Shown in pieces: positions 2,269 to 34,346 of a stretch of 43,034 bases of DNA; positions within the stretch are counted from its first letter, which is position 1, and the number at the start of each line of letters is the position of its first letter. The stretch lies in the IMG/VR virus record IMGVR_UViG_3300035510_000237; one strand, 5' to 3'. A program made the position numbers and the translations under genes. The stretch is from a virus. The notes under the pieces are model-generated. The model ran no database searches, was not told the origin of the DNA, and saw only the letters and a program-made list of their open reading frames with translations.

Positions 2269-2280
2269 TATAATATAATT

Positions 2281-11200: not shown

Positions 11201-13175
11201 CGCCTGACCTGTTATAATGCTAATATTAGATTTTATTCTTTCAAATCCCGCAGTAATTGAGTTGCCAAATAACGCCAAAAAAGCAGGAACCACTACTTTA
11301 GTAACTACTCCGCCTAAACCGCCTAATTTATCAATTAACGTATCAATTACTTCAATAAAACCTTCAATACCATCTAAAGCAGAAATAAAAGCATCATCAT
11401 CAATTAACTTAGAATAAATACTTTCTAAAGCTGCTTGCACTCTATCACTAGCAGCCTCCCAGCTTTCAGCATAAATATCCTATTGCTCCTAAAGGGTGCC
11501 CTCAGAAGTAGCAGCTGTCTCCAAATTCTGCTACATAGCGTCCCAGTTATCCATTAAAGCAACAAACTGAGTATACTGTCTTGTACCAGCAACGGTTTCA
11601 GCCAGCGCCATCTAAGTATCCTTGCTTAAAGTAGACCATTTAGCTGCGGTTTCGTCAAGGATAGTATCCATATCCTTTAAATCGCCAGAAGCATCTTTAA
11701 TATTTACTCCGACTTTCTCCAAAGCCTGAGAATAAGTACCTAAAGAAGTACCATCATCAAGAGTTTCTCCTAACTCTAGGTCTTGGATTCTCGCAAAAAC
11801 TGTTTTTAAAGCTGTACCTACTACATCGGCAGACTGACGAGTCTATGCTGTAATAGTAGCTAAAGCAGAGGCCGCATAATCATAGCTTAAACCTACGGTA
11901 TCACCTACAGCTGCGAACTTCTCAACGCCTTCTGCGATTTCTGCCGCACTAGATGCAGTCGTAGCACCTAACTTAGTAAGTACATCCGCATAACGCTCTA
12001 AGTTATCAGAACCATCTGAGAAGTTATTCCAAATAGCTGTCATATACTCGGAAACAGTATCCGCAGATTCGCCCATGACATTAGCTAGCTTTACGGTCGT
12101 TTCAACACGCTCGGCAACCTCTTCGTCATTTAACCTTTATATTCCATATAGCTCGCTACTTCTATATGCGTTCTCTTATGAACTGCTACAACTTTTCAAT
12201 TGTAGAGTAGACTATATCTCACCTAATATGAATGGTATTATCATTTTGTCCATCCTAGGTATTCCCTTTTCGATTCGCTTGAATCTACTCCTCTTTGACC
12301 GAGGATAGTCGTTGAACCTTTCTCTTATCGAGACTTGGCTGCGGATTGCCCAATCTTTTACCTTTTTACTATACCCATGATGATTAATCATAGCCATCAA
12401 ATTCTCTCTTTGATTTAGTAGTAAAAGCTCTAAGGGCTTGCCCGCAATTAAAGAATTTTTAGGGCAATAAATCTTTTATATTTATACGCTTGCCTTTGAT
12501 AATTATAAATTTACTACCATCAGCTCGTGTTTTAATTAATTCCGACTAAAGAAGATTTTAATTTTCCCTATTGATAATAAATCAGCGACGCGTTCGTATA
12601 ATCTGTCGTTGTGGTGCTTAAAGCTTTAGCTGCTTTATTCGCATTCTCTGCGAAGACCGCCATCTAGTCGCTAGTCTGCCCAGTAACAATTCTAATATTG
12701 TTTAATGATTCATTTAAATCTTCCGCATAATTAACAGCGGTTGAAATTCCACTCATTAAGCCATGAATAATACTAGATGATAACTACCATTTAGCTGCAT
12801 TCATTAAAGTGACTTTCAAGTCAGACATTAATGTGCTAGTCTATCTTAATGGAACCTCAGCATTCTAAATAGATGTCGCCAAAGAAGCAAATGCTTTCTA
12901 CCCACTAGTGCCGCAAGCCTCTAAAGTCTTACGATAAGATTCAAGACTTGTGCCACTCTATTTCAAAGAAGTATTAAACTTCGTTAAATCTAATTTACCA
13001 GAAGGAAGTGTAGCTTGCGCCAGCTATGTCTTTAATTGCGCGGCGGCCGCACTAGCTTCCTATATCTCTTTGGTTAAAATATTCTGGCCGCTACTTACGC
13101 TTGAGCCACTCGCAAGCTCAGTTAGCTATTTCTGTAAATCCTATAACTACGCCTTGGCCTAGGCAGTATCCGCGG
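2281..13175 (-). CDS. Tail tape measure protein, one giant TAG-recoded ORF. join(12541..13175, 2281..12134) with a group I intron at 12135..12540; about 3,480 aa after splicing.
   Basis: ATG at 13173-13175 follows an AAAGGAG RBS. The N-terminus has a TMP core, ...AAKALSTTTTDYTNASLIYYQQG | (K)LNDEEVAERVETTVKLANVMGESADTVSEYMTAIWNNF..LTKLGATTASSAAEIAEGVEKFAAVGDTVGLSYDYAASALATI... The C-terminus ...EIQEALNTLVNAASQYANRK* (TAA at ~2281) is typical of Firmicutes siphovirus TMPs. All ATG ORFs of at least 60 aa on the track between 4277 and 12076 share one frame and all terminate at TAG. I read 2281-5880 and 11159-12134 continuously with only TAG interruptions. There is a GGS-rich low-complexity stretch at ~5840-5960. 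Confidence 0.6.
12135..12540 (-). other. Group I self-splicing intron in the TMP gene, ORF-less.
   Basis: Minus-strand reading finds the core elements. P-like AATTGCGGGCAAG is the revcomp of ~12421-12433. Q is AATCCGCAGC exact, revcomp of ~12335-12344. R is GTTCAACGACTA exact, revcomp of ~12299-12310. S-like AGATATAGTCT is the revcomp of ~12200-12210. Splice sites were chosen so the 5' exon ends in U, the intron ends in G, and the frame is restored (..IYYQQGK|MLNDEEV..). The intron carries TAA/TGA stops in all frames. Confidence 0.7.
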
Positions 13176-13257
13176 TAAACGCTAGATTTACAGTAATCTA
13201 TTGTGCCATATATTTACTCCTTTCTCTCTCGGTTTTTCTATTTGCAAATAAAAAAAT

Positions 13258-13295
13258 AAAGGGTATTAGAGCTAAATAACTCTAATACCCTTAAC
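13258..13295. terminator. Bidirectional stem-loop between the chaperone-like gene and the TMP gene.
   Basis: AGGGTATTAGAG-ctaaataa-CTCTAATACCCT 12-bp stem flanked by A/T runs. Confidence 0.4.
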
Positions 13296-13328
13296 TCCTA
13301 TAATTATCTTAAAAAATGAATAACTATA

Positions 13329-13856
13329 TTATCCAAGTTTGGTTAGTACATCCTTCACCAGCGTCAGATTATCTGAATCAGATAAAGTCTCTGCAATCTG
13401 CTTGGCGTTAAAATCTGTATCGCTATAATCCGCCTTAATGACCTCTAAAAGCCCAACAATAGAATTACGGTATGTATAAAGAGACTAGGCGCAATCATTG
13501 ATTCCATCAATAATTGCATTGTACTCTATCTCTGGAATAGCGGCTACAATCTTATCAATAATGCCATTGCCCTCAAGCAAATCATAGATTTTTACGGGGT
13601 CTTCCTTCTGCTTCTCTGTAAATGAAAGATTAGTATACTGATAAATAACCTCTAATGCGCCAAACATTTCCAGCTTTACAGGATTTGAAAAACTATTATT
13701 ATCCTAAGCATTATTAATAACATTAGAAATAAGAATTAATTTATCATTAACAGAAAGATACTGTTTAACTTCAACACTTACATCACCAGTAAGCTAAACA
13801 ACTTTAACATCTGTATTCTTTGAAAGGCCAAGTTTAGTAAATGATACTTTTGCCAT
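13329..13856 (-). CDS. Tail assembly chaperone-like protein (position-based call), TAG-recoded, ~175 aa.
   Basis: AGGAGAAATTAAA-ATG start. The protein reads MAKVSFTKLGLSKNTDVKVV(Q)LTGDVSVEVKQYLSVNDKLILISNVINNA(Q)DNNSFSNPVKLEMFGALEVIYQYTNLSFTEKQKEDPVKIYDLLEGNGIIDKIVAAIPEIEYNAIIDGINDCA(Q)SLYTYRNSIVGLLEVIKADYSDTDFNAKQIAETLSDSDNLTLVKDVLTKLG* with TAA at ~13329. It contains track ORF 13485..13667. It lies immediately 5' of the TMP gene. Confidence 0.45.
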
Positions 13857-13910
13857 TTTAATTTCTCCTTTTTCTCTTTTTATATAGTATAACATAATTT
13901 TTAAGAAAAG

Positions 13911-15056
13911 TCAAACTACTATAGTGCTTTTTAAAGTTTTGTTAGAATATTTAGAAAAAATTTCTAATAATTCGTTAAATTTCTTTGAATAGTCACTATT
14001 AGCCTAATCTGTTATTTTTCCCGTTTTATCATAAAAAATATCCTAAAAATTTTTATTAAAATTCTAAGAATTAGATAAAATATCATAAAAGCACTAATAA
14101 ATTTCATTTAAACTAGAAATTATCTAATAGCAAGACATAATAACATTATTATTTCCTTTAACTTGATAAGCTTTACCATTTAAATAAATATCGCCACCTT
14201 TAATAAAAGATACATTTTCACCTGCCTAATGATCTTTTAACAAGGTATTAATAGGATTTGGTTCTATAAAAGCAATTTGAGAAAGGAAATCCCCATATAA
14301 AATCATCGGATTTTCCCACTAAGCTTCAATTAATGAAGCTCGTAATTTATTAAAATGCTCATAAACAATTCCTAAATTATAATAGCTTATAGAATTTATA
14401 TTATCTCCATACCAAAAAGAAGGAGTTTTTGATTCACCAGCAAAACTAATATATGTTAATAAGTCTCTTTTTTTATTCTAATAAATTTTATGGACTTTTC
14501 CACTACTTGAGACCTTTGTACTTTCATAAACTGAATTGTCTTTATTATAACTAACAGTGCCCGCTTCTTGCAAAGCGGCCCAGGCACTAGACCATCCAGA
14601 GGTGTTTAATAGTGTCTAAGCGGTTTTAACCGCTTCTTCACTTTTTTTTATTGCAGTATCTAGCTAAAGCGCTCCATTTTTACCAATTCGTAACCCGCCT
14701 TTAAGAAGCTAATCTTGAGTAACTACCACTTCAGATAATCCACTTTCTGGAGTCTATATCTATATAATAAAATCTATATCTTCATCTGAAATAAAACTTC
14801 TTATCTTTAAAATATATTTTGCAGCTTTTAAAAGTAATTTATTATAATTTTCTTTTTTATTTTGTGAACCTTTTGTAACCTAAGCATAACGAAAAGAATC
14901 TATTAAACTAGCACCTTGTTTGAGTATTTTTAATATCTCCTATGTTTTTTTGTTAATATTAGATTCCTCTTTCAAAATCCTTGAAATAGTTTCAGATAAT
15001 TCCATTAACTATTCTTTAGAAATAAAATCAATATCTGTTTTATAGTACATTTCCAT
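13911..15056 (-). CDS. Hypothetical protein, ~380 aa, TAG-recoded (about 17 internal TAG), located between the major tail protein and the chaperone-like gene.
   Basis: AAAGGAG RBS then ATG at ~15054-15056. A single frame is open to the TGA at ~13911. It reads MEMYYKTDIDFISKE(Q)LMELSETISRILKEESNINKKT(Q)EILKILKQGASLIDSFRYA(Q)VTKGSQNKKENYNKLLLKAAKYILKIRSFISDEDIDFII(Q)I(Q)TPESGLSEVVVTQD(Q)LLKGGLRIGKNGAL(Q)LDTAIKKSEEAVKTA(Q)TLLNTSGWSSAWAALQEAGTVSYNKDNSVYESTKVSSSGKVHKIY(Q)NKKRDLLTYISFAGESKTPSFWYGDNINSISYYNLGIVYEHFNKLRASLIEA(Q)WENPMILYGDFLSQIAFIEPNPINTLLKDH(Q)AGENVSFIKGGDIYLNGKAYQVKGNNNVIMSCY(Q)IISSLNEIY(Q)CFYDILSNS(Q)NFNKNF(Q)DIFYDKTGKITD(Q)ANSDYSKKFNELLEIFSKYSNKTLKSTIVV*. Confidence 0.45.
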
Positions 15057-15094
15057 TATAGCTTTTATCTCCTTTCTCTCCAATATAAAACAAA

Positions 15095-15122
15095 ATAGGG
15101 GGAAGATATTACTATCTTCCCC
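15095..15122 (-). terminator. Rho-independent terminator after the major tail protein gene.
   Basis: GGGGGAAGATA-tta-CTATCTTCCCCC stem followed by TTAAAAAA, directly 3' of the MTP stop at 15146. Confidence 0.5.
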
Positions 15123-15145
15123 CTTAAAAAATCTTTGGCTTTTAA

Positions 15146-16421
15146 TTAACCAGAAATATACTTATTAAGACCCTCAACGAGTTCCTCATGAGCTTCCTCA
15201 TGAGCGGTATAAGTACGAACCAGGTCAAGCTCCTCAGCAGTATCAATTATCTGGAGAGCGCAAATAACTTTCTTACTGTGGTCAAATCTTGTATAATCTG
15301 GGAACGCATCCATTGTAAAAGTAAAGGTAGATGGATCACCAGTAGAAGCCATAGTAAAGGTAAAGTTGGACTGCACGTTACAGTTAGGAATAATAAACTC
15401 TGCGGGTAAATCAATACCATGCTCATCACGGAACAGAGTCTGAGCCTCAAGATAATAGCTGCCGCCAAACTTATCAGCAGTAATCTCAATCTGCTTCATG
15501 CCAGAAGTACGCTCGGTATAATAGTCAACAAGGACACAATCATAGCCATAGGTGGGTACGTCTTGAACGCCATACTCATAAGTACCATCCTGTAAGCCAC
15601 GAGTAGTTGTCTGAACAGTAATGGTGTAATAACCATCATCGCCCTTCTCAACATCCTCATGAACAGGAATATAAGGCTCAGTGATAATCTGACCATCCTT
15701 CATAAACATAACATAAGCATAATTCTCAGAAGTACTAGCTGGCAGATAAGGCTTATTAGTAAGCTTAATAGTCACAACAGCGGTAGGACCATCGCCAGTA
15801 ACCTGAACAAGCAGTTCGCCCTCAGAGTTAGTAGCACTAGAGTCAATCTTCTCAGTAACATGCTGCTTCAGAGCGCTAGTCTCAGAAGCCTCAATCAGAC
15901 CTGCGCCAGACAGAATCATAAAGCCCTCTGGAGAGATCAGCGCGTCTTCCATGGTGAAGGTAACAGTTCTCTCACCTTCCCAGGCAACCAGTCTTGAATT
16001 ACCTCTGCCGCCCTGGGCATATACTGTGGTAGACTGACCTTCAAGAGTAGATGTCTTTAATGTATCAAAATAAATGACAGGCTCATTCTTATAGAAAATC
16101 TTGTTTCCGATTTTTTGAGTAGTCTTAGCACGTAAAACTACCTCGCAAATTTCTCTTCATATTATAAAAATATGGACTATCTCTTACTAGCAGTCAAGCT
16201 GCTAGTATACCTTTTTGGAATTGTGTATCAATAACAATCCTACAAAATCTATTAAGATTTTTAGTCTCTACATCGCTCTCACTTTTTGTGAGTATGACAC
16301 GGGATTCTTCTTTTCAGACATTCCCCGTTAGCTGCGGATTTCCAATTTTTTGGTAAAACGCAACCCCTAGCGATAACTAGGATAAGGTATATTAGTGCAA
16401 GCAATTCACACCAAATTTCAT
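15146..16421 (-). CDS. Major tail protein. join(16408..16421, 15146..~16130), interrupted by a group I intron. GC-rich and contains no TAG.
   Basis: Track ORF 15146..15952 (268 aa) stays open far upstream of its internal ATG (..KTTQKIGNKIFYKNEPVIYFDTLKTSTLEGQSTTVYAQGGRGNSRLVAWEGERTVTFT-MEDALI..) but has no in-frame start. A strong RBS, AAGGAGGAAAATTAATAT-ATG, sits at 16419-16421, followed by 14 nt of exon (ATGAAATTTGGTGT) and then a group I core. Splicing to ..G|TGCTAAGACT gives MKFGVAKTTQKIGNKIFYK... Two other 3' sites, 16146 and 16157, are also in frame. Confidence 0.6.
16131..16407 (-). other. Compact group I intron (~277 nt) in the major tail protein gene, ORF-less.
   Basis: Minus-strand reading finds Q as AATCCGCAGC exact (revcomp of ~16330-16339). 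P-like GGTTGCGTTTTACC is ~25 nt upstream of Q. R-like GTAGAGACTAAA is the revcomp of ~16266-16277. S-like AGATAGTCC is the revcomp of ~16173-16181. R/S are GACTA/TAGTC complementary, forming P7. A possible P1 pairs exon GGUGU|GAA with intron UUGCACU, giving a U·G at the splice site. Confidence 0.55.
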
Positions 16422-16424
16422 ATA

Positions 16425-17221
16425 TTAATTTTCCTCCTTAAAAACAAATTTCTATTTTTTTCTCTATAAAAATAACTCAGGGTTATTTTTATACATAAAT
16501 TTGCCTATTCTTATAGTATCTTTTTTACCAAATCGAATAGACATAGAGGAAGGGTCATAACTTCCGCCTTCAACGCCCGCTTTATCTTTTAAAATAGCCC
16601 ATAAAGTATTTAAAAAATCTTTACTGCCACTAGTAAATGCGCTGTTTAAACGATTGTTTTTTAACCGCATAATGCACCCGTCGCCATCAAAATATCCACG
16701 AATAAAATCTGCTAAATACTCTTCTGGAATCTCTGGGAACTTAGCTGTTAAGCTTTTTCTCTCTGACCCTCCTAGAGAAATTATATCATTATATATAACT
16801 ACACAGCTAAAATTAAGCCTAGCCGCCTATCTATCAACGTAATCATAAAGGCTACCTTCATAGTTTAGTTCTTCAGCTATACGCTTTAAAATATATTTAT
16901 CTTTAGCGTGTAATGTTATATCAAACATTTTACCCCCATAGATACATCCATCAGCAAACCATAGCCCTAAAATGTAAGCCATATTATTTGACCATGTTTT
17001 AAAATAATCCTAATTGATATGCCATTTTCTAGCATTCTAAGATTGTACTTTACTTTTTTCTTCCTATGAGAGTTTTTTAATAGCTTTATGCTAATGATAG
17101 CAATAACTATATATCTAGTCCTTCGTATAGACCTTATTAAAGTATTCATACCATTCGGGCAAGGTTTTACTCTCACTCTAAGTTAAGAGAATCTCCTTAT
17201 GTTCCGGTAATATCGGCAAAA
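16425..17221 (-). CDS. Free-standing LAGLIDADG homing endonuclease with two motifs, TAG-recoded, immediately upstream of the intron-containing major tail protein gene.
   Basis: Motif 1 is MAYILGLWFADGCIYGG and motif 2, about 95 aa later, is ADFIRGYFDGDGCIM. The frame contains track ORF 16464..16670. The start is uncertain. It is either the ATG at 16982 with a weak RBS, or the upstream TTG at ~17221 after AAAAGGAAG, read through 6 TAGs. It ends at the TAA at 16425-16427 if TAG is sense, or at the TAG at 16464 if not. Confidence 0.6.
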
Positions 17222-17242
17222 TATTACACTTCCTTTTCAATT

Positions 17243-17974
17243 TTATTGATGAAGATTTTTCATCCAATCATCTGGTTTGGAATCTGGCTTGCCTCCCGCC
17301 AAACGAGAACGAATATCCAAATCCCAGTTTATATAAAGCGAATATCTTTCAATTAAATCATATAGCTAATATATAGTACAATTTAATAAATCCTATAATG
17401 ACATTGACTCTAAACCAATAGTCAATATTGAAACATATCGGCTTAATATACTTGAATTATTGTCTCCCTTCTGCGCAGCGACCCTCTAGCGTCCGCGCAT
17501 CAGCTTATCCGCAATTTCTTTAGCTTTTGAATTACCAGGATTAAATGACTACTAATCCATTGGCCCATTCTTAGAGCAACAAACTAATCTAATAGCGTCC
17601 TAAAGGCTATCAAAATTATTTTCATCAACAGTAATCATTTCATCTTCATTCTAAAAGATTAAAGACCTTGGAGCAAATAAAACATTATTTTTTGGAAAGA
17701 ATAAGCTCAAAACCTGCTAGACGCAAATTTTCTTATCCGCAGTTTGACGCTCATTCATCACTGTCATAAATATCTAAAAATTGGTTATATTCTCTAAATT
17801 ATCTTTGCCCTACTAAATAAACATTGATTTATGTAAGGTTAAAGTCTAAACTCCAATGAAAAAATCTTCTTCTCCTAAATAAGATATTTCTTTAATAGAA
17901 GGCTAATGAAGAACTAATCTACAAGGAGGTATTGGAATATCTGTGCCTGCCATTAAAGCTAGTCTGGTATCCAT
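17243..17974 (-). CDS. Hypothetical neck/tail protein, ~243 aa, TAG-recoded.
   Basis: Its ATG overlaps the upstream stop (ATAATGG). It reads MDTRLALMAGTDIPIPPCRLVLH(Q)PSIKEISYLGEEDFFIGV(Q)TLTLHKSMFI(Q)(Q)GKDNLENITNF(Q)IFMTVMNERQTADKKICV(Q)QVLSLFFPKNNVLFAPRSLIF(Q)NEDEMITVDENNFDSL(Q)DAIRLVCCSKNGPMD(Q)(Q)SFNPGNSKAKEIADKLMRGR(Q)RVAAQKGDNNSSILSRYVSILTIGLESMSL(Q)DLLNCTIY(Q)LYDLIERYSLYINWDLDIRSRLAGGKPDSKPDDWMKNLHQ* with TAA at 17243-17245. Confidence 0.4.
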
Positions 17975-18561
17975 TATTTATCTTTAAACATATCCTTGAA
18001 ATCTTTTAAAAATTGTTCTTCATCATTGGGATTTGCCATTGGACGTTTATCTTCTTCTCCATGAATTGCCTAATACATTAAGCAGAAACCGGCGTATTCA
18101 TCATTTAAAATCATCTAAGTTCCACCCAAAAATTCAAGCGTACCAATTCCTGTTAAACGCTTACCACTAAATAAGCTATCAATCTCTGCCGCAATCTTAT
18201 AAGGCCGCAATGAAAAATCTTTTAACTGCCACTAATCAAAATGACAAATTATATCAAATTCAACAATATTATCTCTAAATTGTGGATTTGTCGCATTAGG
18301 AGTAAAATTATCAAAATTAATTAAAATGTAGTTCAATACAGTTCCATCAACAATTAATTTTGGAACAATTCTGATATTTTTTCCATACATTTCAATAGAC
18401 TGTTCCTTAGTGATATTTGGCCTAGATAAACAATCCGGAGTAGTATAATATAATAACCTTTTTAATCTTTCATCATCTAACATTGTATTTACAATCAAAT
18501 TTAAATCTTTCTCGTTAGAAAGAAAACTTGATTTTGGGGTATGAGTATTATCAATTTTCAT
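17974..18561 (-). CDS. Hypothetical structural protein, ~195 aa, TAG-recoded (3 TAG).
   Basis: Track ORF 18232..18561 (MKIDNTHTPKSSFLSNEKDLNLIVNTMLDDERLKRLLYY..ICHFD) continues past its TAG as (Q)WQLKDFSLRPYKIAAEIDSLFSGKRLTGIGTLEFLGGT(Q)MILNDEYAGFCLMY(Q)AIHGEEDKRPMANPNDEEQFLKDFKDMFKDK* to the TAA at ~17974-17976. Confidence 0.45.
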
Positions 18562-18580
18562 ACCATCTCTCCTTTATCTC

Positions 18581-19683
18581 TCAAAACAGGGATTCAACAA
18601 CAACAGTTTTACTATAATCTCCAAAAGATAGTACAAACTAACCGCTATAATTACTATCCCATACAATCTTTACTTTCTTAGGATTGTCAGCGTCCACAGT
18701 CATTTTAATGGGATACTTTTTATCTAAAGTCCATTCCCCTACAGCTTTATTGCGGCGGCAGATGTAAGTATATTCAAGTCTAGGTTTAATAAATATATCC
18801 CCACTAATATCCTCTAAAGCAGCTTCTTCAGGCGTAGGCTCTACATTTTTAATGACCAAACCTCCAGCGATACCATTCTCAATATCATCTTCGATTTCAT
18901 TACTATAATACTCTTGGGCATTAATCTCTAATACGCCTGGCATACTTATCCAATCTGTTGCCTCAACTCGCCAGCAAACTTTTGCGGAATCCCCTTGTAA
19001 ATAAAATTTAGCATATCTCTAAAAATATTTCTATGTATATTCATTTAAAGGCATTAAAATATTTAAAGAGTAATTTGGTGTATCAATGCTAATATCATGT
19101 TTCTAAACAGAATTAATAACAGTCTCTACTGGGCCACGGACTGCCGCATAGGTAGAATGGCGGCCTGTGTCATCATCCCAGCAAATTTCATAAGAGCATT
19201 TTCTTATATCTCCTCTAAAATAAGCCAATTCTGTTAAATCCTATAAATAAATCAGCCAATGCGTCTTAGTTCCAAGCCATTCAAACACATCTCCTGGCTA
19301 AAAGCCATACTCATAACCAACTGACAAAATCTTATCATCATAATCCTATTTCAGTTTATCAGGATTAATTAATGCTCTAATTGGGTGACTATCTTCATCT
19401 TCTAAAACATTTCTAATATCAGCACCCTAATATGATGAAAAAAGCGCTCTATTTAAAGAGCGTCTTTTATCTTTTATCATTCTTTCCTACTATAAAAAAC
19501 CACCATTAACAGCTAACCGCTTAGCGCCACTTTCAATGCTATAAATACCTTTATCTAATATCTATCCTTTTTGGTGCTAAATCAAATCAGTTGAATTTAA
19601 TGGATAACGACTTTCATTTGAAATTCCTAAACGGCCAGCCATCTATTTTAATGAAGGGTTGCTTAAATTGCTATAACCTGCCA
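18581..19683 (-). CDS. Hypothetical structural protein, ~366 aa, TAG-recoded (about 14 TAG).
   Basis: ATG at 19681-19683 overlaps the upstream TAA (CTAATGG). A single frame contains track ORF 18638..18943 and ends at the TGA at 18581-18583. It reads ..LEDEDSHPIRALINPDKLK(Q)DYDDKILSVGYEYGF(Q)PGDVFEWLGTKTHWLIYL(Q)DLTELAYFRGDIRKCSYEICWDDDTGRHSTYAAVRGPVETVINSV(Q)KHDISIDTPNYSLNILMPLNEYT(Q)KYF(Q)RYAKFYLQGDSAKVCWRVEATDWISMPGVLEINAQEYY.. Confidence 0.45.
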
Positions 19684-20019
19684 TTAGTTTGACTCCTATA
19701 GAAGCCCAATACATTCAAATACTGTTTTTCTATATAGATCGAAGCCCATATCTTTTACAAGCAAGCCTTCTAATTTACTTAATAACTATAATAATTGCGG
19801 GCCGCTGAATATTTCAGCAAGCCCGGCAATTTCTATGGTAACTGTCTGTAATTGCTTCTCCCAATCCTCATTATTTTCTCGCATTGGGATTAACTTCCAT
19901 AATTGGTTAGTTAATCTACGATTATTCTTTACTAAATCTTCTTCTGAAAAATCAATATGATATTTATTTAAGAGCACTTTTAGTTCTAAGCACAGACCAG
20001 TTGGATTTATACTATCCAT
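19683..20019 (-). CDS. Hypothetical small protein, ~112 aa; 1 TAG is read through.
   Basis: Track ORF 19786..20019 (AAAAGGAG RBS) ends at TAG and continues as (Q)LLSKLEGLLVKDMGFDLYRKTVFECIGLL(Q)ESN* to the TAA at ~19683-19685. Confidence 0.4.
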
Positions 20020-20572
20020 TCTCGTCGAGCTTTCTCCTTTTATAAAGTCTCTACATATGAAAGGACTCTCTCTGCGCTTCGCTTAGTAGGCTCATAAGTT
20101 TAGATAAATGGTTAGCCTAACTGGTCATTTTAAAATCTGACCCAGAGAACTTCATACGAGTATTCTCAATAGACGCCACTTGGCGTTCTACCCAGCTCTA
20201 CTTCATTAGTAAAGCTAAAATATTTATTTCTTCAGAAGTTAATGTAGCATTAAAATAAGAATGTTCGATAATTACATCAGGAATTTCTTCTGTAGTATCG
20301 TCTTCTGATATTTCTTCTGGAATTTCATTCCAAATAACACCTATAATAAAATCATCTGGTGAGACATCTGATTCTCGAACAACCTCTGTCTTTAACTCAT
20401 AATCATAAAGATTAACGCGAGGAAATTCAAAACCAGGAATGGCATCAATTAATAAATGCTATAAATCTTTTACAGTGTCTTCTGGAGTTAATTCCATATA
20501 CATATCATCAGTTATTTTTTCGAGGAAACGATTGTATACTTTAGTAAAATGAGTTCCAACTTGTTCTTCCAT
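19964..20572 (-). CDS. Hypothetical head-tail joining region protein, ~202 aa; overlaps the next gene by ~56 nt.
   Basis: AGGAGGAAACA-ATG at 20570-20572. It reads MEEQVGTHFTKVYNRFLEKITDDMYMELTPEDTVKDLQHLLIDAIPGFEFPRVNLYDYELKTEVVRESDVSPDDFIIGVIWNEIPEEISEDDTTEEIPDVIIEHSYFNATLTSEEINILALLMK(Q)SWVERQVASIENTRMKFSGSDFKMTSQANHLSKLMSLLSEAQRESFHM(Q)RLYKRRKLDENG(Q)YKSNWSVLRTKSALK* with TAA at ~19964-19966. The C-terminal part after the second TAG is uncertain. Confidence 0.35.
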
Positions 20573-20592
20573 TGTTTCCTCCTTCTACTAGA

Positions 20593-21153
20593 TTAGTCCT
20601 CAGTACTAACTACCTTATATTCAGGAGTGGTTCTGCGGGTAGTATCATCAACCTGGACTCTACGAGTAGGTGTAGTAGAATCTGAGGTATCGTTGCTCTC
20701 TGCGCGCTCCTTTTCAAGATTAGCCAGAGCAGCAGTAACATCAAAACCAGTCTTTTCCTTTAATGCACGTCTCTTTTCGAGGTCATTCATTGGGAGACTG
20801 ATAGAAAAGCTCTTAATTAAATCAATAATCCCAGTAGGTGCAAAATCAAGGCAATCAAGGAAAGAGTCTAAAGAACCCTCCTGGATCAGTTTAATAATAT
20901 CTTCCTCAGACATATTATACTCAGGCTCTCTTTGAATATTTAATTCATCGGTAACAGCTTCAGCCTGAATCTGTAAAAAGTTAGTCATTAAGCCTCGTCC
21001 ACCCTGTTGGAAACTAAGCTTCTCAAGTTCCTCATAAGGAATACGCTTAGTCTCACCGGCCGCAAACTCTCTGCGAACATGCATCTCAGGGATAGAATAC
21101 ACAACAGTACTTGCGCTGCGATTCTTCACTTGACAAATAGTATTAGCATCCAT
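20593..21153 (-). CDS. Hypothetical protein, 186 aa, no TAG.
   Basis: Complete track ORF with an AGGAGAAAATTAAATA-ATG RBS. It has an acidic S/T/R-rich N-terminus and sits between the capsid and connector genes. Confidence 0.5.
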   Translation of the reverse strand: MDANTICQVKNRSASTVVYSIPEMHVRREFAAGETKRIPYEELEKLSFQQGGRGLMTNFLQIQAEAVTDELNIQREPEYNMSEEDIIKLIQEGSLDSFLDCLDFAPTGIIDLIKSFSISLPMNDLEKRRALKEKTGFDVTAALANLEKERAESNDTSDSTTPTRRVQVDDTTRRTTPEYKVVSTED

Positions 21154-21187
21154 TATTTAATTTTCTCCTTTATCTCTTTTTTAAATA

Positions 21188-21211
21188 AAGGGGAGAGGAG
21201 TACTCTCCCCC
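21188..21211 (-). terminator. Terminator after the major capsid protein gene.
   Basis: GGGGAGAG-gagtact-CTCTCCCC stem followed by CATATTTT, ~25 nt 3' of the MCP stop. Confidence 0.45.
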
Positions 21212-21233
21212 ATATTTTATATTATATATTTAA

Positions 21234-22325
21234 TCAGGAATTAACTGTACCAGTATAGTCCTTAATATTAGTATTGCTTAAATGCCATGTATCCATCTGA
21301 CCAACAAGAGCAGTATCAACATAAGCACAAATATCATTAGCGAGCATGCAAGTCACGCCGACCTTCTTATAAACCTGAATCTCACGGCTGCGGTCTGCGT
21401 TGGTAGCCTCATCAACAATAGTGCCACCCTCAAAAGCAATCTTGACAGGCTTGCCATTAGCGCCAGAAGGAATAACCCAAGCATAACCAGGATCAATTAC
21501 CTTGCGGCTATTGGTCTCGTCCTCAAAGCCCTGCTCAAGAATAACAACCTGATGGCCCTTATAAGTAGGAAGACGACCAGTATTCCAGAGCTGCTCCTTC
21601 ATAGACTCAGTGTATCTCCAAGCCTCTTGAGGAATCATATTAACAGCAAACTCATATGTGCAATAAATAGTAGGAGTACCATATGCAGAAGCAATAGTAA
21701 TTAATCTATCAAAAGCAGCCTCGTCAAAGCCAGCTGCGGCCACACGGTTAGCAGGAGGCAGCTGATTAATAGAAGCCTTCAGAGCATGAGCAACCTCTTT
21801 GTAAACGAGTTCATCCATACCTTCCATGATAATACGAGTAACCTCTGCGAAGTCAACACGGCCATCAAGGAACTCCTCAAAGCCAATCTGAGCAGCGCCA
21901 CCAATAGCACTGGTGCGAACCTCGAAGCTTTCCTCGTTCTTACCAAGCTTAAAGACCTCATAAATACCAGCAAGGCCAACGCGAGTAACAAACTGCTTAG
22001 CTCTGTTATTGGAAGTCAGCTTTCTACGGAAGAGAATCTTCTGACCCTGAGCAAATGTACGAGTCTCAGCGAACTGGTCATACTGCTCTTCAACCTTCTT
22101 GGGAAGAACATCATCAAGAGTTTCCTCAATGATAGAGAAAATCAGATTCTTGTTCTCACGATATAAAGCATAAGTACCAACGTACTCATTCAACTCCTTG
22201 CGGAGAGTCTCTTCAAGTGCCTCATAGCTAAAGTTCTGTCCATTATAACTATATGCGGTAGGAGCAGAAGGGTCAGCCTTAGCAACTTGCTTCATTAAAG
22301 CAACTAAATTCTGTTTATCTAACAT
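21234..22325 (-). CDS. Major capsid protein, 363 aa. GC-rich and contains no TAG.
   Basis: Complete track ORF. The only large TAG-free structural ORF. Its position after the scaffold gene, its size, its composition (GC ~45% versus ~30% around it) and the following terminator fit a highly expressed MCP. Confidence 0.55.
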   Translation of the reverse strand: MLDKQNLVALMKQVAKADPSAPTAYSYNGQNFSYEALEETLRKELNEYVGTYALYRENKNLIFSIIEETLDDVLPKKVEEQYDQFAETRTFAQGQKILFRRKLTSNNRAKQFVTRVGLAGIYEVFKLGKNEESFEVRTSAIGGAAQIGFEEFLDGRVDFAEVTRIIMEGMDELVYKEVAHALKASINQLPPANRVAAAGFDEAAFDRLITIASAYGTPTIYCTYEFAVNMIPQEAWRYTESMKEQLWNTGRLPTYKGHQVVILEQGFEDETNSRKVIDPGYAWVIPSGANGKPVKIAFEGGTIVDEATNADRSREIQVYKKVGVTCMLANDICAYVDTALVGQMDTWHLSNTNIKDYTGTVNS

Positions 22326-22343
22326 TACACTTCTCTCCTTTCA

Positions 22344-23108
22344 TTAGACAATGCGCATAATCTTAACGCCGCGCTGATGGTCAGGCATGGTATAAACCTT
22401 AACAACCTGCCACTCCATCTTATCATCAGTACCAACTTTGAGAATACCATCATCGCCAACAACAAGGATGTCGCCAACAGAAAGCTCACTAGCATTCACA
22501 GTATTAGTAGTAAAAATATCACCAACATTAGTCTTGAAGACACGTGGCACCATGGTAGTACCAGCAGGCATAAGACCCTCTTTGTAAGGACCATAAATAT
22601 GGAAAGGATCCTCGTTATAATGAATCTCATACATATCAGGACCAGCAGTCACATCATCATAAGCATATTCATTTTCACCAATAGTGGTTGAACTCTATTG
22701 CTGGTCATCGACACCATTGTAATAACGAGACTGTCTATCAAGCACTTCGTCAGCAACAGGGTTGCCATCCTTATCAAGAGCATAACCGAATGGGCTATAC
22801 ACACGAGCCTGATAATTGTCCTTCAGCATTGCAAACTCGCAATCAATCTGATGGTCGCGATAAAGCTTAATCTCATTGTAAACGAGCATCCACTCGCCCT
22901 CGCCAGTAAAGTCAACAACGCCCTTAGCATAATCATACTTTACAAACTGACCCTGCTCCAGAACGTCAATATCAGCAGCAGCGGGCAGCTATGCATAAAT
23001 CTAGGCAGTTCTCTGCGCTGAGAGGTGGTTAGGCTCTACTTGGCCATAGCCATACTCAACGAAGCTTGCCTGGCTTGTAATATTCTTCTTTAAAAAATCA
23101 CTAAGCAT
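22344..23108 (-). CDS. Hypothetical head protein, 254 aa, with 2 internal TAG.
   Basis: AAGGAGGATAAAAA-ATG at 23106-23108. It reads MLSDFLKKNITSQASFVEYGYGQVEPNHLSAQRTA(Q)IYA(Q)LPAAADIDVLEQGQFVKYDYAKGVVDFTGEGEW-MLVYNE.. It joins track ORFs 22695..22889 and 22344..22652 in one frame. Confidence 0.5.
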
Positions 23109-23125
23109 TTTTTATCCTCCTTAAA

Positions 23126-24733
23126 TTATTTTAAATCTTTCGCAACTTCCATAGCAGCTCTAACCCAAGCTGGAGTAGATTCATCCTCAGCAAGATTACC
23201 TAAATTATAAGTAGTAGGTGCTGCAGACTTAGAATCTTCATCCTGGCTAAAGCTTACCTTATTGCGGACGCAAATAATAGATAATTTAGCTTCAATATCC
23301 TCTAAAGAATAATTATCAATATTATTGACAACATCAGCTTTATCTTCATCAGAAAGCATATAGAAACTATTAATCATCTCTTGCTTTTGGTCTCTCTCGA
23401 CCTTATTACGGAACTGAATAAGAGGCTCAAGCTTATTATTAAGCTCCTCCTTCTCTGCGAGAAGAGTGTTATATTTACTCTCTAATTCAGAATATTTATT
23501 TACTAAATCAGTATAGTCAGGAATATCATTTAAATTAAGATTCTCAACTTCAACATATTTATCGACAGTTGATGTATCTGCGCAACTATACTTCTTTTTC
23601 TTCTTCTTAGAGTCGTCCTCTTCATCTTCCTCTGCGGGCTTCTCTTCCTCATCCTTATCATTAGACTTGGAATCATCAGAAGGCTTTTCCTCTTTATTAG
23701 AATCCTCTTCTGTTTTATCCTCAGTTTTCTCTGATTCATCTTCGTCTTTTTTGTCCTTAGACTTTTTATATTCAGACTCAAAGGCTTGGATGCCTTCAGG
23801 AGAGAATTGAGGAGTTTCAACACTATAATCCTCCACAGCAGTAAGCTCCGCCGCAAACTCAATAGCATCCCCATTAACAGAGAAATCCAAACGTGAGAAC
23901 TCTCCATTGGTATTCTTTAAGATGGCATATTTCTGGCCTTCATCCTCAAATATCCCATCAATAGAATAAACTCCTGGATAAGTCTCATCAATATGGCTAT
24001 ATAAAGCAGACCACAAAGTATCGCCAACTTTAACAGAATAAGTATTAAACACTTGTGTCCCTCCTTCTTTTAATAATTCTTTTAATTCATTCATCATTGA
24101 GAACAGCTAATTCTTAAAACCTTCATCAAATGAGAATTGAACATTTGAAATAGTAGAACCTTCAAAGCAAGGTTCACAATCTTCGCCTAATATACATAAT
24201 TTTGATATTATCGCTTCATTAATTATAAAAAATTGCGGATTTCCATTATTATCTTCTGACCAATACGCATCAATATTTTTATCATCAAGTTCCATTGATT
24301 GGTTATTGCCATGTTCAACAATTCTTGCGCACTCAGGATATTGACCAGTCCAAAGATAACCTTCAGTCATTAGATACTCATGCTCATAAACGCCATCGTC
24401 TAAAAACTTCTAAAACCAAACTTTTGCATCCATACTAACAAATCCATAAGGACGAGTAGTATCTTTAATTTCAAATTTACCATTAGAAATGTCAATTACA
24501 CGATTATGCTCTTCAAAATCCTCTTTAGATTCGTTATAATACCCAACTATGGGAGAACCAGGAAGAGAATTAGCCATATCACGCGCAACCTCTTTAGTAA
24601 TAATACTTCCATTCCTATTAGGCTCGTCGCCAACATAACAAACCTTGATTTCACATTTGGAAATCAAAGGGTTAAGAGGGACGATATTAATAGGTTCGCA
24701 AGGAACCTCTAACTTTACACTAGTGTGTTTCAA
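23126..24733 (-). CDS. Capsid maturation protease-like N-domain fused to an acidic coiled-coil scaffolding C-domain, 535 aa, with 2 internal TAG.
   Basis: Track ORFs 24410..24733, 24107..24370 and 23126..24097 share one frame and are separated only by TAG. The C-terminus has a DE/K-rich linker and a coiled coil (..KYNTLLAEKEELNNKLEPLIQFRNKVERDQKQEMINSFYMLSDEDKADVVNNIDNYSLEDIEAKLSII..), typical of phage scaffold proteins. The N-domain function is inferred and uncertain. Confidence 0.5.
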
Positions 24734-24746
24734 AATATTTACCCCC

Positions 24747-26342
24747 TTAACTCATTGATTCACGATTCTATAATGTCTTTTCGCTCTTTTCATTATCTTC
24801 TTTTTCAGGGCGACCAACTTCATTGTCGCTAGAGCCACTAGAAGATTTACTCTAACGGCTAGCTTTAAGCGCAGTTACATTTTCAGCACTCATAACAGAC
24901 GACTGTAAAGGTGGCACCATGAGTTCGCTAAGATTAAGAACTTCATTCTCAAAATAAGCGGTATGAAGAATAGAACTCTAAGAATGTCCTAATGCAACCT
25001 GCGGAAGCATCATAGAGAAGCCAATCTAAGAATCTTCTTTATACATCTTAGCCAAAGTTTGATAATTATACTGAGTGGTTTCCATCATACAAAATCTAAA
25101 ACCATATTTTTTTCTATTAGCACATTTTGATTGTACTACCTTATCCAGAAATGCACTAAGCTAGAACAGCAATGTGCGCATTGTGGATTCATCAGCTAAA
25201 ATAGAATTAGTAAGCGCAATATTTCCATCGGCATTAAATATATCTTTAGATATACCAAGAGAATTATAAACTGTACGCTCCACTCTCTCCAAATCATCTG
25301 TAGTAGTACTAGTATTATCATCAGCCATATCTTCAACTTGAATGTCCGCAAATGTCGTTAAAACATCAACGCCAATAGCATGACTTAACATTTCAACTGC
25401 ATTATTATGAATATCAGTTGCTTCGTCAACGTCAAAAATTAAATCGCCATTCTTATCAAGAGGCAGTTTCTGAATAACAATCTTTAATAACTGCTACATC
25501 TACTTGCGGCGATCTAGGTCTTGTGCGGCATCCAAATCTAGAATAGCAGGAATCGCATTAATAAATAAAGGAGCATCATGATTATTAAAACTAAACTTGA
25601 CCGCAGTTCCTGGGTCTAATGTATACCAACTGCCATAAGTCTCACTTATAGTATCTGCAGGGAGTTTATGAGTTTTATATAATCTATATCCTTTTTGAAA
25701 ATCTGCTGGGAACATACCTAAAATTTTTGTTCGATATGTTAAATCGGGGAATTGTTCATCAAAGAATTTCATATTAAAATCTACAACAGGCTAATCCCCA
25801 ACATTAAATAAAGAACGACAATAATTAGCTGGAAGCTATTGTAAAACTAGACTATCAGAAGAATCAATTATATAGCCATAATAAGCGCCACTGCGAATAA
25901 CTTCCAATGAAATATCACCCGCAAGTTTCTTAATATGAGTGTTATCTAAATAATTTAAAATATTATTCCAGTCTTTTAAAATCTTATCATTATTAGCCGT
26001 ATCATCTAATACTTCTGGATAAATATACCAATCATATCTATATAAAAAAGCATAATAATCACAAGCTGTTTTATAAATACCACTGGTATTATAAAAATAG
26101 TTTGAAATTTCCCGCATAAGTTTAATATCATGGGTTTCAATAGCTTTTAAGATAAATCGTTTATTACCAAACTAATTCTTAGCTTTGCTAAAAGCGCCTA
26201 AATTTAAAACCGCATCTTCAAGAGTTTTTGTGCCAGTTTTAATGCGGCCATACTACACAGCTCCCTCTGGGCCTTCGTATGTTTGGCGTTTACTCATCAT
26301 ATCAAAGCCTTTAGCTCGAATTTCTTCCTATCTATTTCTCAA
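24747..26342 (-). CDS. Portal protein, ~530 aa, TAG-recoded (about 13 TAG).
   Basis: GGGGGTG RBS then TTG at ~26340-26342. One frame is open to the TAA at 24747-24749 and contains track ORFs 25836..26117, 25500..25772 and 25161..25391. Its position between TerL and the scaffold gene, and the motif ..ISNYFYNTSGIYKTACDYYAFLYRYDWYIYPE.., are portal-like. Confidence 0.55.
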
Positions 26343-26357
26343 TAACTTTCACCCCCT

Positions 26358-26713
26358 TAATATCCAGCCTTCTCCATAATATAATCATATGATATTAAGT
26401 TTTCTTCGGTATAAGGGATTTCTATTAATTTAAAATCATGAAGTGCACAAAAACGCTTCTTCTTATTATCATTAAACTATTGTTGATAGAAACCTTTCTT
26501 ACCACCATACTTAGCACTAGGCTCATAATGTTGTTTACCTTGATATTCAATAATAAAATCTATGTTATTATCATCATCAAAAACAACAAAGTCAAAACGA
26601 AGGGGGCGGCCACTTGAACTCTTTAGCTCAGGAAAAATATATTCCATTCTATATTTTAGCCCAGAACGCTCTAAGATTTCATGGATTTTTCGTTCTCCTC
26701 TACTAGCATCCAT
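26358..26713 (-). CDS. PD-(D/E)xK-like small nuclease (possible homing-endonuclease-like gene) between TerL and portal, ~118 aa, with 1 TAG.
   Basis: GGAGG RBS then ATG at 26713. It reads MDASRGERKIHEILERSGLKYRMEYIFPELKSSSGRPLRFDFVVFDDDNNIDFIIEYQGKQHYEPSAKYGGKKGFYQQ(Q)FNDNKKKRFCALHDFKLIEIPYTEENLISYDYIMEKAGY*. The D..(12)..IEYQGKQH spacing resembles a restriction-endonuclease-fold core. Confidence 0.4.
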
Positions 26714-26796
26714 TCAGTAGCCTCCTTTCTTCTAATTTCTTTCTATATTTTTTATAAAAAATATTCATAATAGCTAAACAATTTTTGTCCTTCTTA

Positions 26797-29700
26797 TTAA
26801 TGAGGAGTATATAATTTCCATTCTTTAGCATTAAATTTCTTTTTCTTTCGTTTACTATCTTCTTCTTGCTTAATATAATACAAGCCATAACATAGCGCAG
26901 AAAATTTATCCTTATGAATACCTTTATTGGCCTATTTAAGAATAATATTAACTCCTTCATTTTCTTCTCGGAGATTAAGCATTTCTTCCTTTAGAATAGA
27001 AGTTAATGAATAAGGAATTAAATATTCCTTCCTCTGTTCTGGAGTCATATTCTATCCAACTTTAGTGCCAAGTAATTTGTTTTTAGCTAATTTATCGTCG
27101 ATTAAAAATTTAATTTTACCGCTATCTATCGCAGTCTATACAGTTGTATAAGCTTCTGTATTAATTGGCGCATTTGCTTTCATAATATAAACAGCATTAT
27201 CTTCTGTATCATCAGTGCGATATTTCTTATAATACTGCGCCGCATCTGCTTGCGTACCACCATATACTCCAAATGGAGGGTAATAATCACCAGTGGCTTT
27301 GTCCGTCTAAGATATTACCATGTCATCTATTAAGCCACCGCCAATACCATTACCATCAATGACAACCCTGCGGGCTTTATATTTATAAAATAATTTCTTT
27401 ATCATTATGGCCTAATCCTAGAAATGAGCATCTTCAAGAGTATAAATATTAACTAGATTCTTTATAGAATCTCCTTTGCTCTAAGGCCGCACTTTAAATA
27501 CACATATTACTGTTTGACATCCTTTACGTCCAACATCAACAGATAATATATAATATGCTTGCTCAGAAGAACGTCTTGAATATTCATTTTCAGGTTTCTC
27601 CAAGCTTCTATTTCTATCAAAATGCTCACCATCAAAGAAAGCATCTTCAACAGTACCTGACCAAACACTTTCATACTCACGGCCAAATGATGCTTCATTA
27701 AAGGTGGGGTCTTTCTTTAAGTCATTAATAAAGTTTTTAGACTAAAGGCCAGCAACTACTGGAATTCGCCAAGTTCCGCCCATGATATAAGCTTTGTCAG
27801 GCTAAATAATCATCTGGACGAGAGTCTAAATTAATTTCTCATAACTATATGTATTTTTATATCCAGCAGTAGTAATATAAAGCTGTGATTGATTTAAAAC
27901 TTCATCTTCTTGTGTTGTTCCATCAAGGCATTGGCGAGAAACGTTCATCAGAGGAATAATAACCTACTGAAGCATATCTTGGTCAACGCCAACACATTCC
28001 TCTATCAGACCGGCATGTTTACGAAGTCCACGAGAACTCTCTCTAGCTGCAACATTCTCTATATCTGAACCATTCTTGAATATAATCTTACATTTATCTT
28101 TGCCCATTTGGGTCTAGCCGCGACGCCAATCTATTTCTCGTTTAAATGCCGGAATTTTAGCGCAAATATCATTAACCTTTTCTTGAAGGATTTGAGCTGC
28201 CTGTTCTTTACCACCAGCAGTTGAGAATAAATGCGCGCCAGGATATAGAATACAACGAATCATCAAAGTTAGCACAGCGAGGAATGATTTCGAATCTTTA
28301 TATTCTAATAAATTCGCAAAATTTATTACGTTCAATTATGAACAGCTTATAGTTTCCTATAAGAATAGACTATATCACACTTTATTGTTATATAATAAAG
28401 TCCTCCTTTTTCGATTTAAGGGGTTCTCACCCACCGCATTAGCTTCGGCCCTACTCCTATTGCCTCTATTTTTATTCCGAGGAGGCTTATTTCAGGATAG
28501 TCGTTGAAGTTTATAAAATTATAGATATTTAAAAATGAATCCGCCATGAGACTTATATCTAATTTGTCTGCACACTTTAGAAATTACACTAGCATCTAAA
28601 CCTAATTGTTTAGCAGCTTCTCTAGCAGAAGGAAATTCTTTTATAAATTGTCCATCTAAAGTATACTATCCAACTCTTTTTGCATTCTAATTAGTTTTAG
28701 TTTCATATAAAGCAGCTCTAACATTTTCAGAAAGAGTAATTTTTCTTAGATTATTAAAATCATTATTTAATTTATTTCCATCAATATGGTCTATTACCTC
28801 ATTTTCTTTAATATTAAAATCATCTGCAAAAACACTATATACTAATTTGTGAATCATAATATCTTTTTTTACACCATTCTAACACAACGTAGCTTTATAA
28901 TAACCACAAGTTATCACTTGCTATAAAATATTATTTGTTTTGATATTATGTATTCTGCCTTTATTAGAAATTCTATAATTAGAATACTCTGGAATTTCTT
29001 TCCATTCTTCACCTATCTAATCGCCATCATATTTAACAAATTTTCTTCGTTCTTTATTGTTCTATGAGTGCCATTTTTTAGTATTTTCAGAATAGCTAAC
29101 CCATTCTAAATTTGTTACACTATTATTTAATTTATTTCCATCAATATGATTAACGACTGGTAGATTATTTGGGTTAGGAAGGAAATGCTCTGCTACCAAA
29201 CGGTGAGCATAAAACATTTTCTTTTTTCCATTTTTAGATAAACGATAATATTTATAGCCATGTTCGCCAATACTGCCTTTTAACATTTTCTAAGTAGTAT
29301 TATTATAAATATCACCATTATCATATATAATATAATTCTCATAATCTTTAATATTCGTTTTCATTTTCAAACCTCCATAATAATATCTTACCTGCGGATT
29401 TTCTTGTTCAATATATTATGAATTTAGAATCCCCGCAATTTAAGAGGTTTGTCCACAGAGATTATCTTAAAAATCTCTGGTTGGCGCAATTCAATTTACG
29501 CTCTCGGATACACAACATATACATACTTGTATCGCATAGCTACCCTTAAAAATACTCTCTAGTAAAAAAATAAGCTAAATGTTATTTTAATTTCTTTACC
29601 TTCAGAATTTTTAAAACATTTATTTCCTGCTTCATTAATATAAACAGGATAGCCACCTGACTACATAAAATCAACAAATAAATCAGGATACTCTCTCCAA

Positions 29701-32232: not shown

Positions 32233-32261
32233 ATTTTTAGAAAAATGGAAAGGGATAAAGT

Positions 32262-34330: not shown

Positions 34331-34346
34331 TCTTTGTCTAATCTGC

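Follow-up and report, generated by a model that had tools for sequence, protein, structure and literature searches.

We report that three group I introns very probably interrupt virion genes of the phage represented by the IMG/VR virus record IMGVR_UViG_3300035510_000237. The window, i.e., the whole stretch of 43,034 nucleotides (nt) that was analyzed, carries on its minus strand what appears to be a virion module of the SPbeta type in which TAG is read as a sense codon. The introns lie in the genes for the tape measure protein (TMP), the tail tube protein, and the large terminase (TerL), and their removal at the RNA level would restore all three reading frames. We assign this interpretation a probability of roughly 0.85. 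An earlier reading of the same letters (the original prediction) had proposed minus-strand group I introns in TMP, in a "major tail protein" (MTP) gene, and in TerL, and each of them is now backed by independent evidence.

Results

Core motifs and TAG recoding

A scan of the window for paired P7 and J8/7 core motifs yielded exactly three pairs, all of them at the claimed intron sites. The P, Q, R, and S core motifs quoted in the original prediction were likewise found on the minus strand at the positions given for them. In all three introns, P7.1 and P7.2 hairpins occur between P7 and P3'. By this feature, the three introns would belong to subgroup IA and resemble IA2, a description that does not amount to a formal assignment.

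The G+C content of the window is 35%. On the minus strand, from approximately 1 to 32.2 kb, long open reading frames (ORFs) emerge only if TAG is treated as a sense codon. Reading through TAG increased the coverage by ORFs of at least 100 aa from 16 kb (standard code) to 48 kb. When the TAG codons of TerL were compared with the aligned positions in homologues, glutamine occupied 84 of the 168 cells, and a further 15 were TAG-to-TAG matches. These data bear out the predicted recoding and suggest that the phage reads TAG as glutamine, with its late (virion) module on the minus strand.

The TerL intron and its HNH endonuclease

Joining U29498 to A28295 results in the protein sequence VYPRA-Y-SKSFL, the predicted ligated junction being ...CCGAGAGCGT/ATTCGAAATC... 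(strokes mark splice junctions here and below). At least 29 intron-less relatives encode a continuous [FY]PRAYSKSFL within a protein that runs from residue 1 to approximately 600 (TerL match of ~1725 nt). Measured against these relatives, the predicted intron at 28296–29497 and its junction PRA/YSKSFL were exactly right. The spliced TerL comprises 602 aa with 14 in-frame TAG codons. The insertion point falls into a highly conserved motif of the Walker-A region, and an in-frame stop is present at the 5' splice site.

The P1 helix is formed by GCGU and GCGC with a U.G pair at the cleavage site, P10 is formed by AUUC and GAAU, and the P1 and P10 strands lie side by side in the guide. The intron terminates with G28296 and has a canonical P4-P5-P6 domain with short J3/4 and J6/7. 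The Rfam group I model RF00028, proposed as a check in the original prediction, gave two sub-threshold halves of 12.3 and 20.9 bits flanking the ORF. An ORF-less intron at the same TerL site of a relative (L053:3298-3592) matched the model with 69.6 bits, i.e., above threshold, and is 78% identical to the 5' part and 89% identical to the 3' part of the intron in the window. The latter corresponds to an L053-type ribozyme with an ORF-bearing insert of ~860 nt in the P6 loop. An alignment of three same-site introns, with the ORF trimmed, recovered P1, P3, P4, P5, P7.1, P8, P9, and P9.2 and contained 15 pairs altered on both sides, including compensatory changes in P3, P8, and P7.1. Two further loci, L001 and L002, carry 99% identical copies of the intron.

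The intron ORF encodes a protein with two HNH_3 matches (4e-18) as well as NUMOD4, NUMOD1, and I-HmuI_NUMOD-like matches in Pfam, and it matches an HNH endonuclease in PHROG at 1e-71. The ORF contains seven in-frame TAG codons, so its translation would need the suppressor system of the phage. Taken together, the TerL interruption has the appearance of a group I intron of the classical mobile type.

An additional ORF of 118 aa (26357–26713, minus strand) is located between TerL and the next large downstream ORF, which is probably the portal gene. It showed a weak match to the nuclease-like DUF2726 (E = 4.5e-4) and may represent another, free-standing nuclease adjoining the intron-bearing TerL gene.

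A divergent intron in the tail tube gene

The gene called MTP in the original prediction encodes a YomU-type tail tube protein. Its spliced product of 341 aa begins with MKFGVREICEVVL..., is encoded without a single TAG codon, and matches PF27173 (YomU_Tube, precomputed Pfam) and the virion structural protein family phrog_2729. Seventy-nine homologues share the N-terminus MKFGVREIC[DE]VVL. In the window, MKFGV is encoded on a 14-nt exon, and REICEVVL follows 250 nt further on. The sole junction that recreates the shared N-terminus is GU/...G16158/A, which corresponds to an intron at 16407–16158 and a predicted ligated sequence of ATGAAATTTGGTGT/AAGAGAAATT.... The first 68 codons downstream of the insert include no in-frame start codon. 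The original prediction had explained this start-less ORF by a 14-nt first exon with a ribosome binding site (RBS), and this explanation held: the RBS reads AAGGAGG, the exon encodes MKFGV, and the N-terminus is restored. The predicted 5' site at 16407 was also right. The three options offered for the 3' site (16155, 16146, and 16131) were not, as they delete or alter REIC and result in N-termini that disagree with the 79 homologues. The true site was missed because only the inside of the downstream ORF had been searched, and it overlaps the TGA that bounds this ORF.

Homologous inserts occupy the same position in three other loci (L119, L146, and L147), and a related core was found 9 nt further downstream in L152. 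The intron is rare, with four same-site carriers among 83 loci examined. P1 is formed by GGUGU and GCACU, with U.G at the splice site, and is invariant in the four sequences. P3 is formed by UAUACCUU and AAGGUAUA, P7 by GAGACUA and UAGUCC, and G16158 is the terminal base. We tested a structure consisting of P1, P3, P7 (pseudoknot), P7.1, P7.2, P8, and P9 on the four same-site copies, with slid and shuffled sequences as controls. In register, 98.7% of the cells paired, compared with 35–48% when the partners were slid. Both sides were altered in 24 pairs, as opposed to 1–6 in the slid controls, and none of 500 shuffles reached the observed value. The both-side changes were distributed over P3 (2), P8 (7), and P7.1 and P7.2 (3 and 6), with P7 being invariant.

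The 3' half and the core sequences of the intron are those of a standard IA-type intron, and the region from P3 to P7 is non-standard. P3 is followed by a conserved hairpin at the J3/4 position. The next element, a P4-like hairpin, shows compensatory changes between the copies upon manual inspection of the alignment. The window and L119 have a P5, whereas L146 and L147 lack it. An invariant P6-like hairpin and then a covarying hairpin at the J6/7 position precede P7. RF00028 did not match the intron at E ≤ 10 (451-nt input), nor did it match the same-site homologues, probably because of the non-standard P3–P7 region. On the grounds of the covarying architecture and the exact restoration of the N-terminus, we interpret the insert as a group I intron.

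A 3' core of the same type (GUGUAGAGACUAAA...GAGAUAGUCC) was also observed downstream of long ORFs in the unrelated viral contigs L145, L148–L151, L153, and L154. In L145, RF00028 scored 26.5 bits on this 3' half. The ribozyme lineage thus seems to extend beyond the tail tube site.

A LAGLIDADG gene travels with the tail tube intron

An ORF with nine in-frame TAG codons separates the tail tube gene from the next gene upstream and stops 3 nt short of the tail tube ATG. The original prediction had overlooked this free-standing gene. Its product carries two LAGLIDADG motifs in one chain, LGLWFADGCI and IRGYFDGDGCI, and matches Pfam LAGLIDADG_3 in two stretches (3.1e-12). Only L119, L146, and L147, the loci with the same-site intron, have a homologue (64–78% identity) in front of the tail tube gene. 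Including the window, the gene is present in all four same-site intron carriers and in none of the 79 intron-less loci, and it is also absent from L152. This strict co-occurrence and the adjacency of gene and intron match the arrangement known from collaborative homing (PMC3984707). The LAGLIDADG enzyme and the tail tube intron therefore likely form a collaborative homing unit, which would require cleavage specificity for the tail tube site.

The TMP intron

The TMP interruption is a group I intron according to a full-length RF00028 match of 61.6 bits at 12510–12187, which exceeds the gathering score of 50. It has a canonical P4-P5-P6 domain with short J3/4 and J6/7; the P3/P7 pseudoknot with P8 was derived from the covariance-model alignment only. 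The Pfam domain PhageMin_Tail (PF10145) extends across the junction, more than 80 intron-less TMP homologues read LIYYQQG/L[ND]D across it, and the spliced reading frame is free of stops. The spliced gene (2279–13209) would encode ~3500 aa with 127 in-frame TAG codons, which is very long even for SPbeta-like phages.

A search for same-site TMP introns by alignment returned only intron-less genes among the best 80 loci. In IMG/VR, the exon-anchored pattern ATHTAYTAYCARYARGGAAAA gave six chance matches without TMP context, and a metagenome scan with the degenerate pattern GAATATAAAGGYTNRAYGAY gave at least 120 chance matches, none of them intron-like among those listed. Pfam analysis of the ORFs neighboring the intron revealed no endonuclease partner.

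The predicted 3' end at 12135 was essentially right, the terminal base being G12134 or G12135. The predicted 5' end at 12540 was not: with A12541 as the last exon base, the frame shifts and 420 downstream stops arise. Hence, four of the six splice coordinates in the original prediction were right and two were wrong, and the claim that removal of the introns restores the frame is valid at all three sites only with the corrected MTP and TMP sites.

The junction that restores the protein exactly (YYQqG/LND) is ...UAG GG(A)/.../(G)UUA AAU. It defines a 431-nt intron and a predicted ligated sequence of ...CAATAGGG(A/T or G/G)TTAAATGAC.... Nearly all resolved junctions of TerL insertions in relatives have the form U/...G/, as the original prediction had asserted for every junction of the window. 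This is correct for TerL and the tail tube gene, and it fails for TMP under the best-supported model. As there is no U where the exact junction needs one, two models remain. The second retains 21 additional nt ending with ...TTTAGT/GTTAAAT, and the two proteins differ by seven residues.

Pairing scores from thermodynamic folding and an exhaustive P1/P10 search left the choice undecided because the AT-rich leader permits many helices. The position of the guide was more informative. In relatives with secure junctions and without P2, the guide is located directly 5' of AAAA-P3-AAU-P4. For example, the guide of L048 reads AUCAU-G-CCCUUUU-AAAAUUCUUUUAAUUGCGGG, and its exon reads AAAAGGGU. The homologous position of the TMP intron contains AUUUAUU-G-CCCUA-AAAAUUCUUUAAUUGCGGG, with G-CCCUA at 12466–12461 and the P10 partner AUUUA at 12473–12469. 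CCCUA complements the exon end UAGGG, and AUUUA complements UAAAU of exon 2. A CCCUA-type guide arose in 0.06% of shuffled sequences and in 0.008% when the preceding G was included; a canonical-looking alternative arose in 18%. Use of this guide implies an insertion of ~95 nt in the P1 loop, which is perhaps a remnant of a lost ORF. Large P1-loop insertions are known in the family, as the ORF of L038 is apparently located in this loop, and the 3' end AUAUAAAGG/ has precedents among the introns of relatives. The homology of the guide, its rarity in shuffles, and these family precedents tipped the balance toward the exact junction, which we consider probable.

In one relative, a TerL insertion near residue 135 (L047:778-1815) has best protein-restoring junctions with only C or A at –1, which makes it a second candidate for a non-U 5' site in the family.

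Over 12 bp (including G.U pairs), the terminal portion of TMP exon 1, GAUUUAUUAUCA, is complementary to the intron sequence UGGUAGUAAAUU (12572–12583 and 12509–12520, minus strand). As a splice-site determinant, this helix was rejected because it gives no in-frame product. It could have arisen by chance, the sequence being AT-rich, or could influence folding as an alternative pairing.

Table 1. Features of the three intron-bearing loci in the window
Feature	Position	Strand	Basis or remark
TMP exon 1	12566..13209	-	ATG at 13209; ends ...TAT TAT CAA TAG GG(A); last base G12566 or A12565
TMP group I intron, 431 nt, ORF-less	12134..12565	-	12564–12134 or 12565–12135 (1-nt ambiguity)
TMP exon 2	2279..12133	-	ORF map with TAG as sense
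Tail tube exon 1, 14 nt	16408..16421	-	ATGAAATTTGGTGT; RBS AAGGAGG at 16439–16433
Tail tube putative group I intron, 250 nt, ORF-less	16158..16407	-	Same-site homologues L119, L146, L147; covariation
Tail tube exon 2	15146..16157	-	MKFGVREIC homologues; PF27173; phrog_2729
Free-standing double-motif LAGLIDADG endonuclease gene (predicted)	16425..17267	-	LAGLIDADG_3; start codon not fixed
TerL exon 1	29498..29807	-	Ends ...CCG AGA GCG U
TerL putative group I intron, 1202 nt, IA2-like	28296..29497	-	P1/P10; P2 through P9.2
Intron-encoded HNH homing endonuclease (predicted), I-HmuI-like, 281 aa	28519..29364	-	In the P6 loop
TerL exon 2	26797..28295	-	Continuous relatives; weak Terminase_6C and PHROG terminase matches

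Alternative explanations

Several observations weigh against three functional group I introns. The TerL intron of the window itself yields just sub-threshold RF00028 halves. The tail tube intron has no RF00028 match in any same-site copy, and its P4–P6 region has extra hairpins at J3/4 and J6/7 and lacks P5 in some copies. The searches for same-site TMP introns found none elsewhere that could provide covariation. Furthermore, the exact TMP junction puts A or G at –1, in conflict with the near-universal U.G rule: either the guide base G12466 is opposite A12565, or a G-C pair forms at the cleavage site. The TMP guide also lies ~100 nt into the intron, compared with 6–18 nt in relatives. Explanations other than introns, namely assembly artefacts, inteins, translational bypassing, or frameshifting, nevertheless have a negligible chance, given the stops in all frames of the inserts, the strong covariation at the RNA level, the Rfam matches, the identical sequence in independent assemblies, and the homologous inserts at the same site in diverged phages. 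For the tail tube insert, the silence of RF00028 on all copies and the non-standard P3–P7 stretch would fit a conserved structured RNA outside group I, be it a ribozyme of a different class or a leader element; the protein would then be made from an internal start or in some other way. We regard this as very improbable, since the insert has a group I topology supported by covariation, comprising a P1 whose U.G lies exactly where the exon ends, the P3/P7 pseudoknot, IA-type P7.1/P7.2, P8, P9, and a terminal G, and also carries R- and S-like core sequences. Moreover, removal of the insert rebuilds MKFGVREIC exactly, the 68 codons past it offer no start in frame, and the same 3' core has a weak RF00028 match in a carrier that contains an ORF.

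For the TMP intron, the site after U12545 was initially preferred and was downgraded after the positional-homology and shuffle tests. It would give a P1 of UUAGU and GCUGA with U.G, an intron of 410 nt (12544–12135), and a protein with KLKSSLV added in YYQQG/LND. This site conforms to the U/...G/ rule followed by nearly all well-resolved junctions of the family, has its guide at +20 and thus near the family range, and keeps the frame without stops. Yet a comparable solution occurs in 18% of shuffled sequences, the site has no adjacent P10, it would place seven residues into a motif that is invariant in at least 80 homologues, and it leaves the homologously placed G-CCCUA guide unused. Splicing after U12545 is therefore unlikely. 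A slimmer chance is that the intron is impaired in splicing by a U-to-A mutation at –1, the genome being a defective or poorly fit variant. The position of G12466 opposite A12565, where relatives carry U, speaks for such a defect. However, an identical sequence from an independent sample (L361) covers the region, so that the genome seems to be propagating, TMP is essential, and C or A are the sole bases permitted at –1 in at least one relative as well (L047, near residue 135). We therefore retain the exact junction for the TMP intron.

Intron density among relatives

The original prediction considered three introns in one phage an unusual density. This view did not stand up to comparison with the clade, in which TerL is interrupted at no fewer than 10 positions (approximately at residues 53, 103, 135, 218, 244, 255, 285, 314, 362, and 421; loci L001–L055), so that three introns in 43 kb are ordinary for these phages. 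Single TerL genes contain five or more insertions in L048 (1565–6037) and in the contig behind L053 (3001–5773) and L044, and 11 of the TerL inserts in relatives pass RF00028. In the tail-gene neighborhood, RF00028 matches were observed on the minus strand of L152 (444–680, 4233–4443, and 5886–6112; 71.8, 52.6, and 33.4 bits, respectively) and L146 (759–981; 37.3 bits), both of which carry a tail tube intron.

Genomic context

According to precomputed Pfam annotations of identical public contigs, the neighboring genes encode YonD_N, YonB, YomW, YomV, and YomU_Tube proteins, which points to a virion module like that of the Bacillus phage SPbeta. Relatives in IMG/VR are represented by contigs of 120–200 kb. 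Independent assemblies were identical in sequence to the window, and an exact-protein lookup returned 100% identical contigs only. In a megablast search of the whole region against deposited phages, the sole match was a 54-nt stretch within the HNH ORF. No tRNA genes were found in the window, and PDB sequence searches with TerL and with the tail tube protein gave no matches.

The region from 32237 to 43034 contains short ORFs on both strands, and little is gained there by reading TAG as sense. This fits a standard-code early region adjoining the recoded virion genes. A motif of ~55 nt occurs in two copies (41570–41625 and 41270–41325) in this right-hand part, which is free of long TAG-recoded ORFs. 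Both copies consist of the inverted repeat CCCTCTTG...CAAGAGGG followed by TTGTCAAG[AG]GTTA and may be operator or promoter elements of the early region. A Q-like 10-mer at 41548, considered as a sign of a fourth intron at 41.5 kb, was discarded as a chance match without group I context.

Discussion

What was observed directly are the sequence elements, their covariation, the exact restoration of the exons, the domains of the endonucleases, and a LAGLIDADG gene that co-occurs with its intron; from these, we infer self-splicing, endonuclease specificity, and homing. Each intron would be transcribed within its host gene and excised by two-step, guanosine-initiated transesterification, with the internal guide of the TMP intron pairing with the exon end UAGGG. 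During co-infection, the HNH enzyme would nick or cleave intron-less TerL alleles, and repair would copy the intron in. Likewise, the LAGLIDADG enzyme would cut the intron-less tail tube site, which the intron disrupts in its carrier and thereby shields from cleavage.

Two further proposals are tentative, and we would put them, taken together, at clearly less than an even chance: that the TMP intron splices accurately despite a base other than U at –1, and that the tail tube intron represents a distinct group I subclass propagated by two genes. If this is true, the TMP intron could reveal, as a naturally occurring exception, how a 5' site is chosen without the wobble pair. The tail tube subclass would be one in which P5 is dispensable and both strands of the triple-helical scaffold carry inserted hairpins. 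Translation of the LAGLIDADG and HNH enzymes would depend on TAG suppression and would hence be delayed until late infection.

Standard annotation pipelines would split or truncate TerL, the tail tube gene, and TMP, which are broken by TAG codons and introns, and the corrected junctions should give the true proteins. As RF00028 misses the conserved lineage of the tail tube intron, surveys based on Rfam alone undercount phage group I introns. The co-occurrence of the LAGLIDADG gene with this intron would provide a clean natural case of collaborative homing in a tail gene, and the TAG-containing endonuclease ORFs tie the expression of homing enzymes to the recoding switch of the phage. The probable non-U 5' splice site of TMP is a testable exception to a textbook rule and, like the divergent ribozyme of the tail tube gene that Rfam misses, is worth an experiment.

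The three introns and their partners belong to known kinds of selfish elements. In the td gene of phage T4 (I-TevI) and in the DNA polymerase genes of the Bacillus phages SPO1 and SP82 (I-HmuI and I-HmuII), group IA2 introns carry an endonuclease ORF within a peripheral loop. The TerL intron resembles these introns in P1-P10, P7.1/P7.2, and an ORF looped out of P6, in a stop at the 5' splice site, and in its position within a conserved motif, here the Walker-A region. Its ORF likewise has HNH and NUMOD domains and matches the I-HmuI NUMOD-like model. Unlike these introns, the TerL intron resides in the large terminase gene of a phage with recoded TAG, and its endonuclease ORF contains seven in-frame TAG codons.

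It is well established that group I introns of phages reside in conserved genes, terminases among them (PMC3984707). The ORF-less tail tube intron beside a free-standing endonuclease gene with which it is inherited is similar to the collaborative homing described in the same review. It differs from the reviewed case in that the enzyme is a LAGLIDADG protein, its gene is wedged before the tail tube start, and the intron lies 14 nt into the gene. A survey of recoded gut phages reported terminases split by mobile introns and one example of a TGA-recoded intron endonuclease (Borges et al., 10.1101/2021.08.26.457843). As in that study, group I introns and endonucleases occur here in a recoded phage and include the terminase; there, they are mentioned in passing as a nuisance for phylogeny, without structures, junctions, or tail-gene introns. 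Compared with RF00028, the TMP intron is a full-length match, and the TerL lineage becomes one once the ORF is absent. The TMP intron departs from the family model by the insert of ~95 nt in its P1 loop and by the absence of U at –1. The tail tube intron shares the P3-P7-P8-P9 half and the core sequences with the model, from which it differs by the extra J3/4 and J6/7 hairpins and a dispensable P5, and it goes undetected by it.

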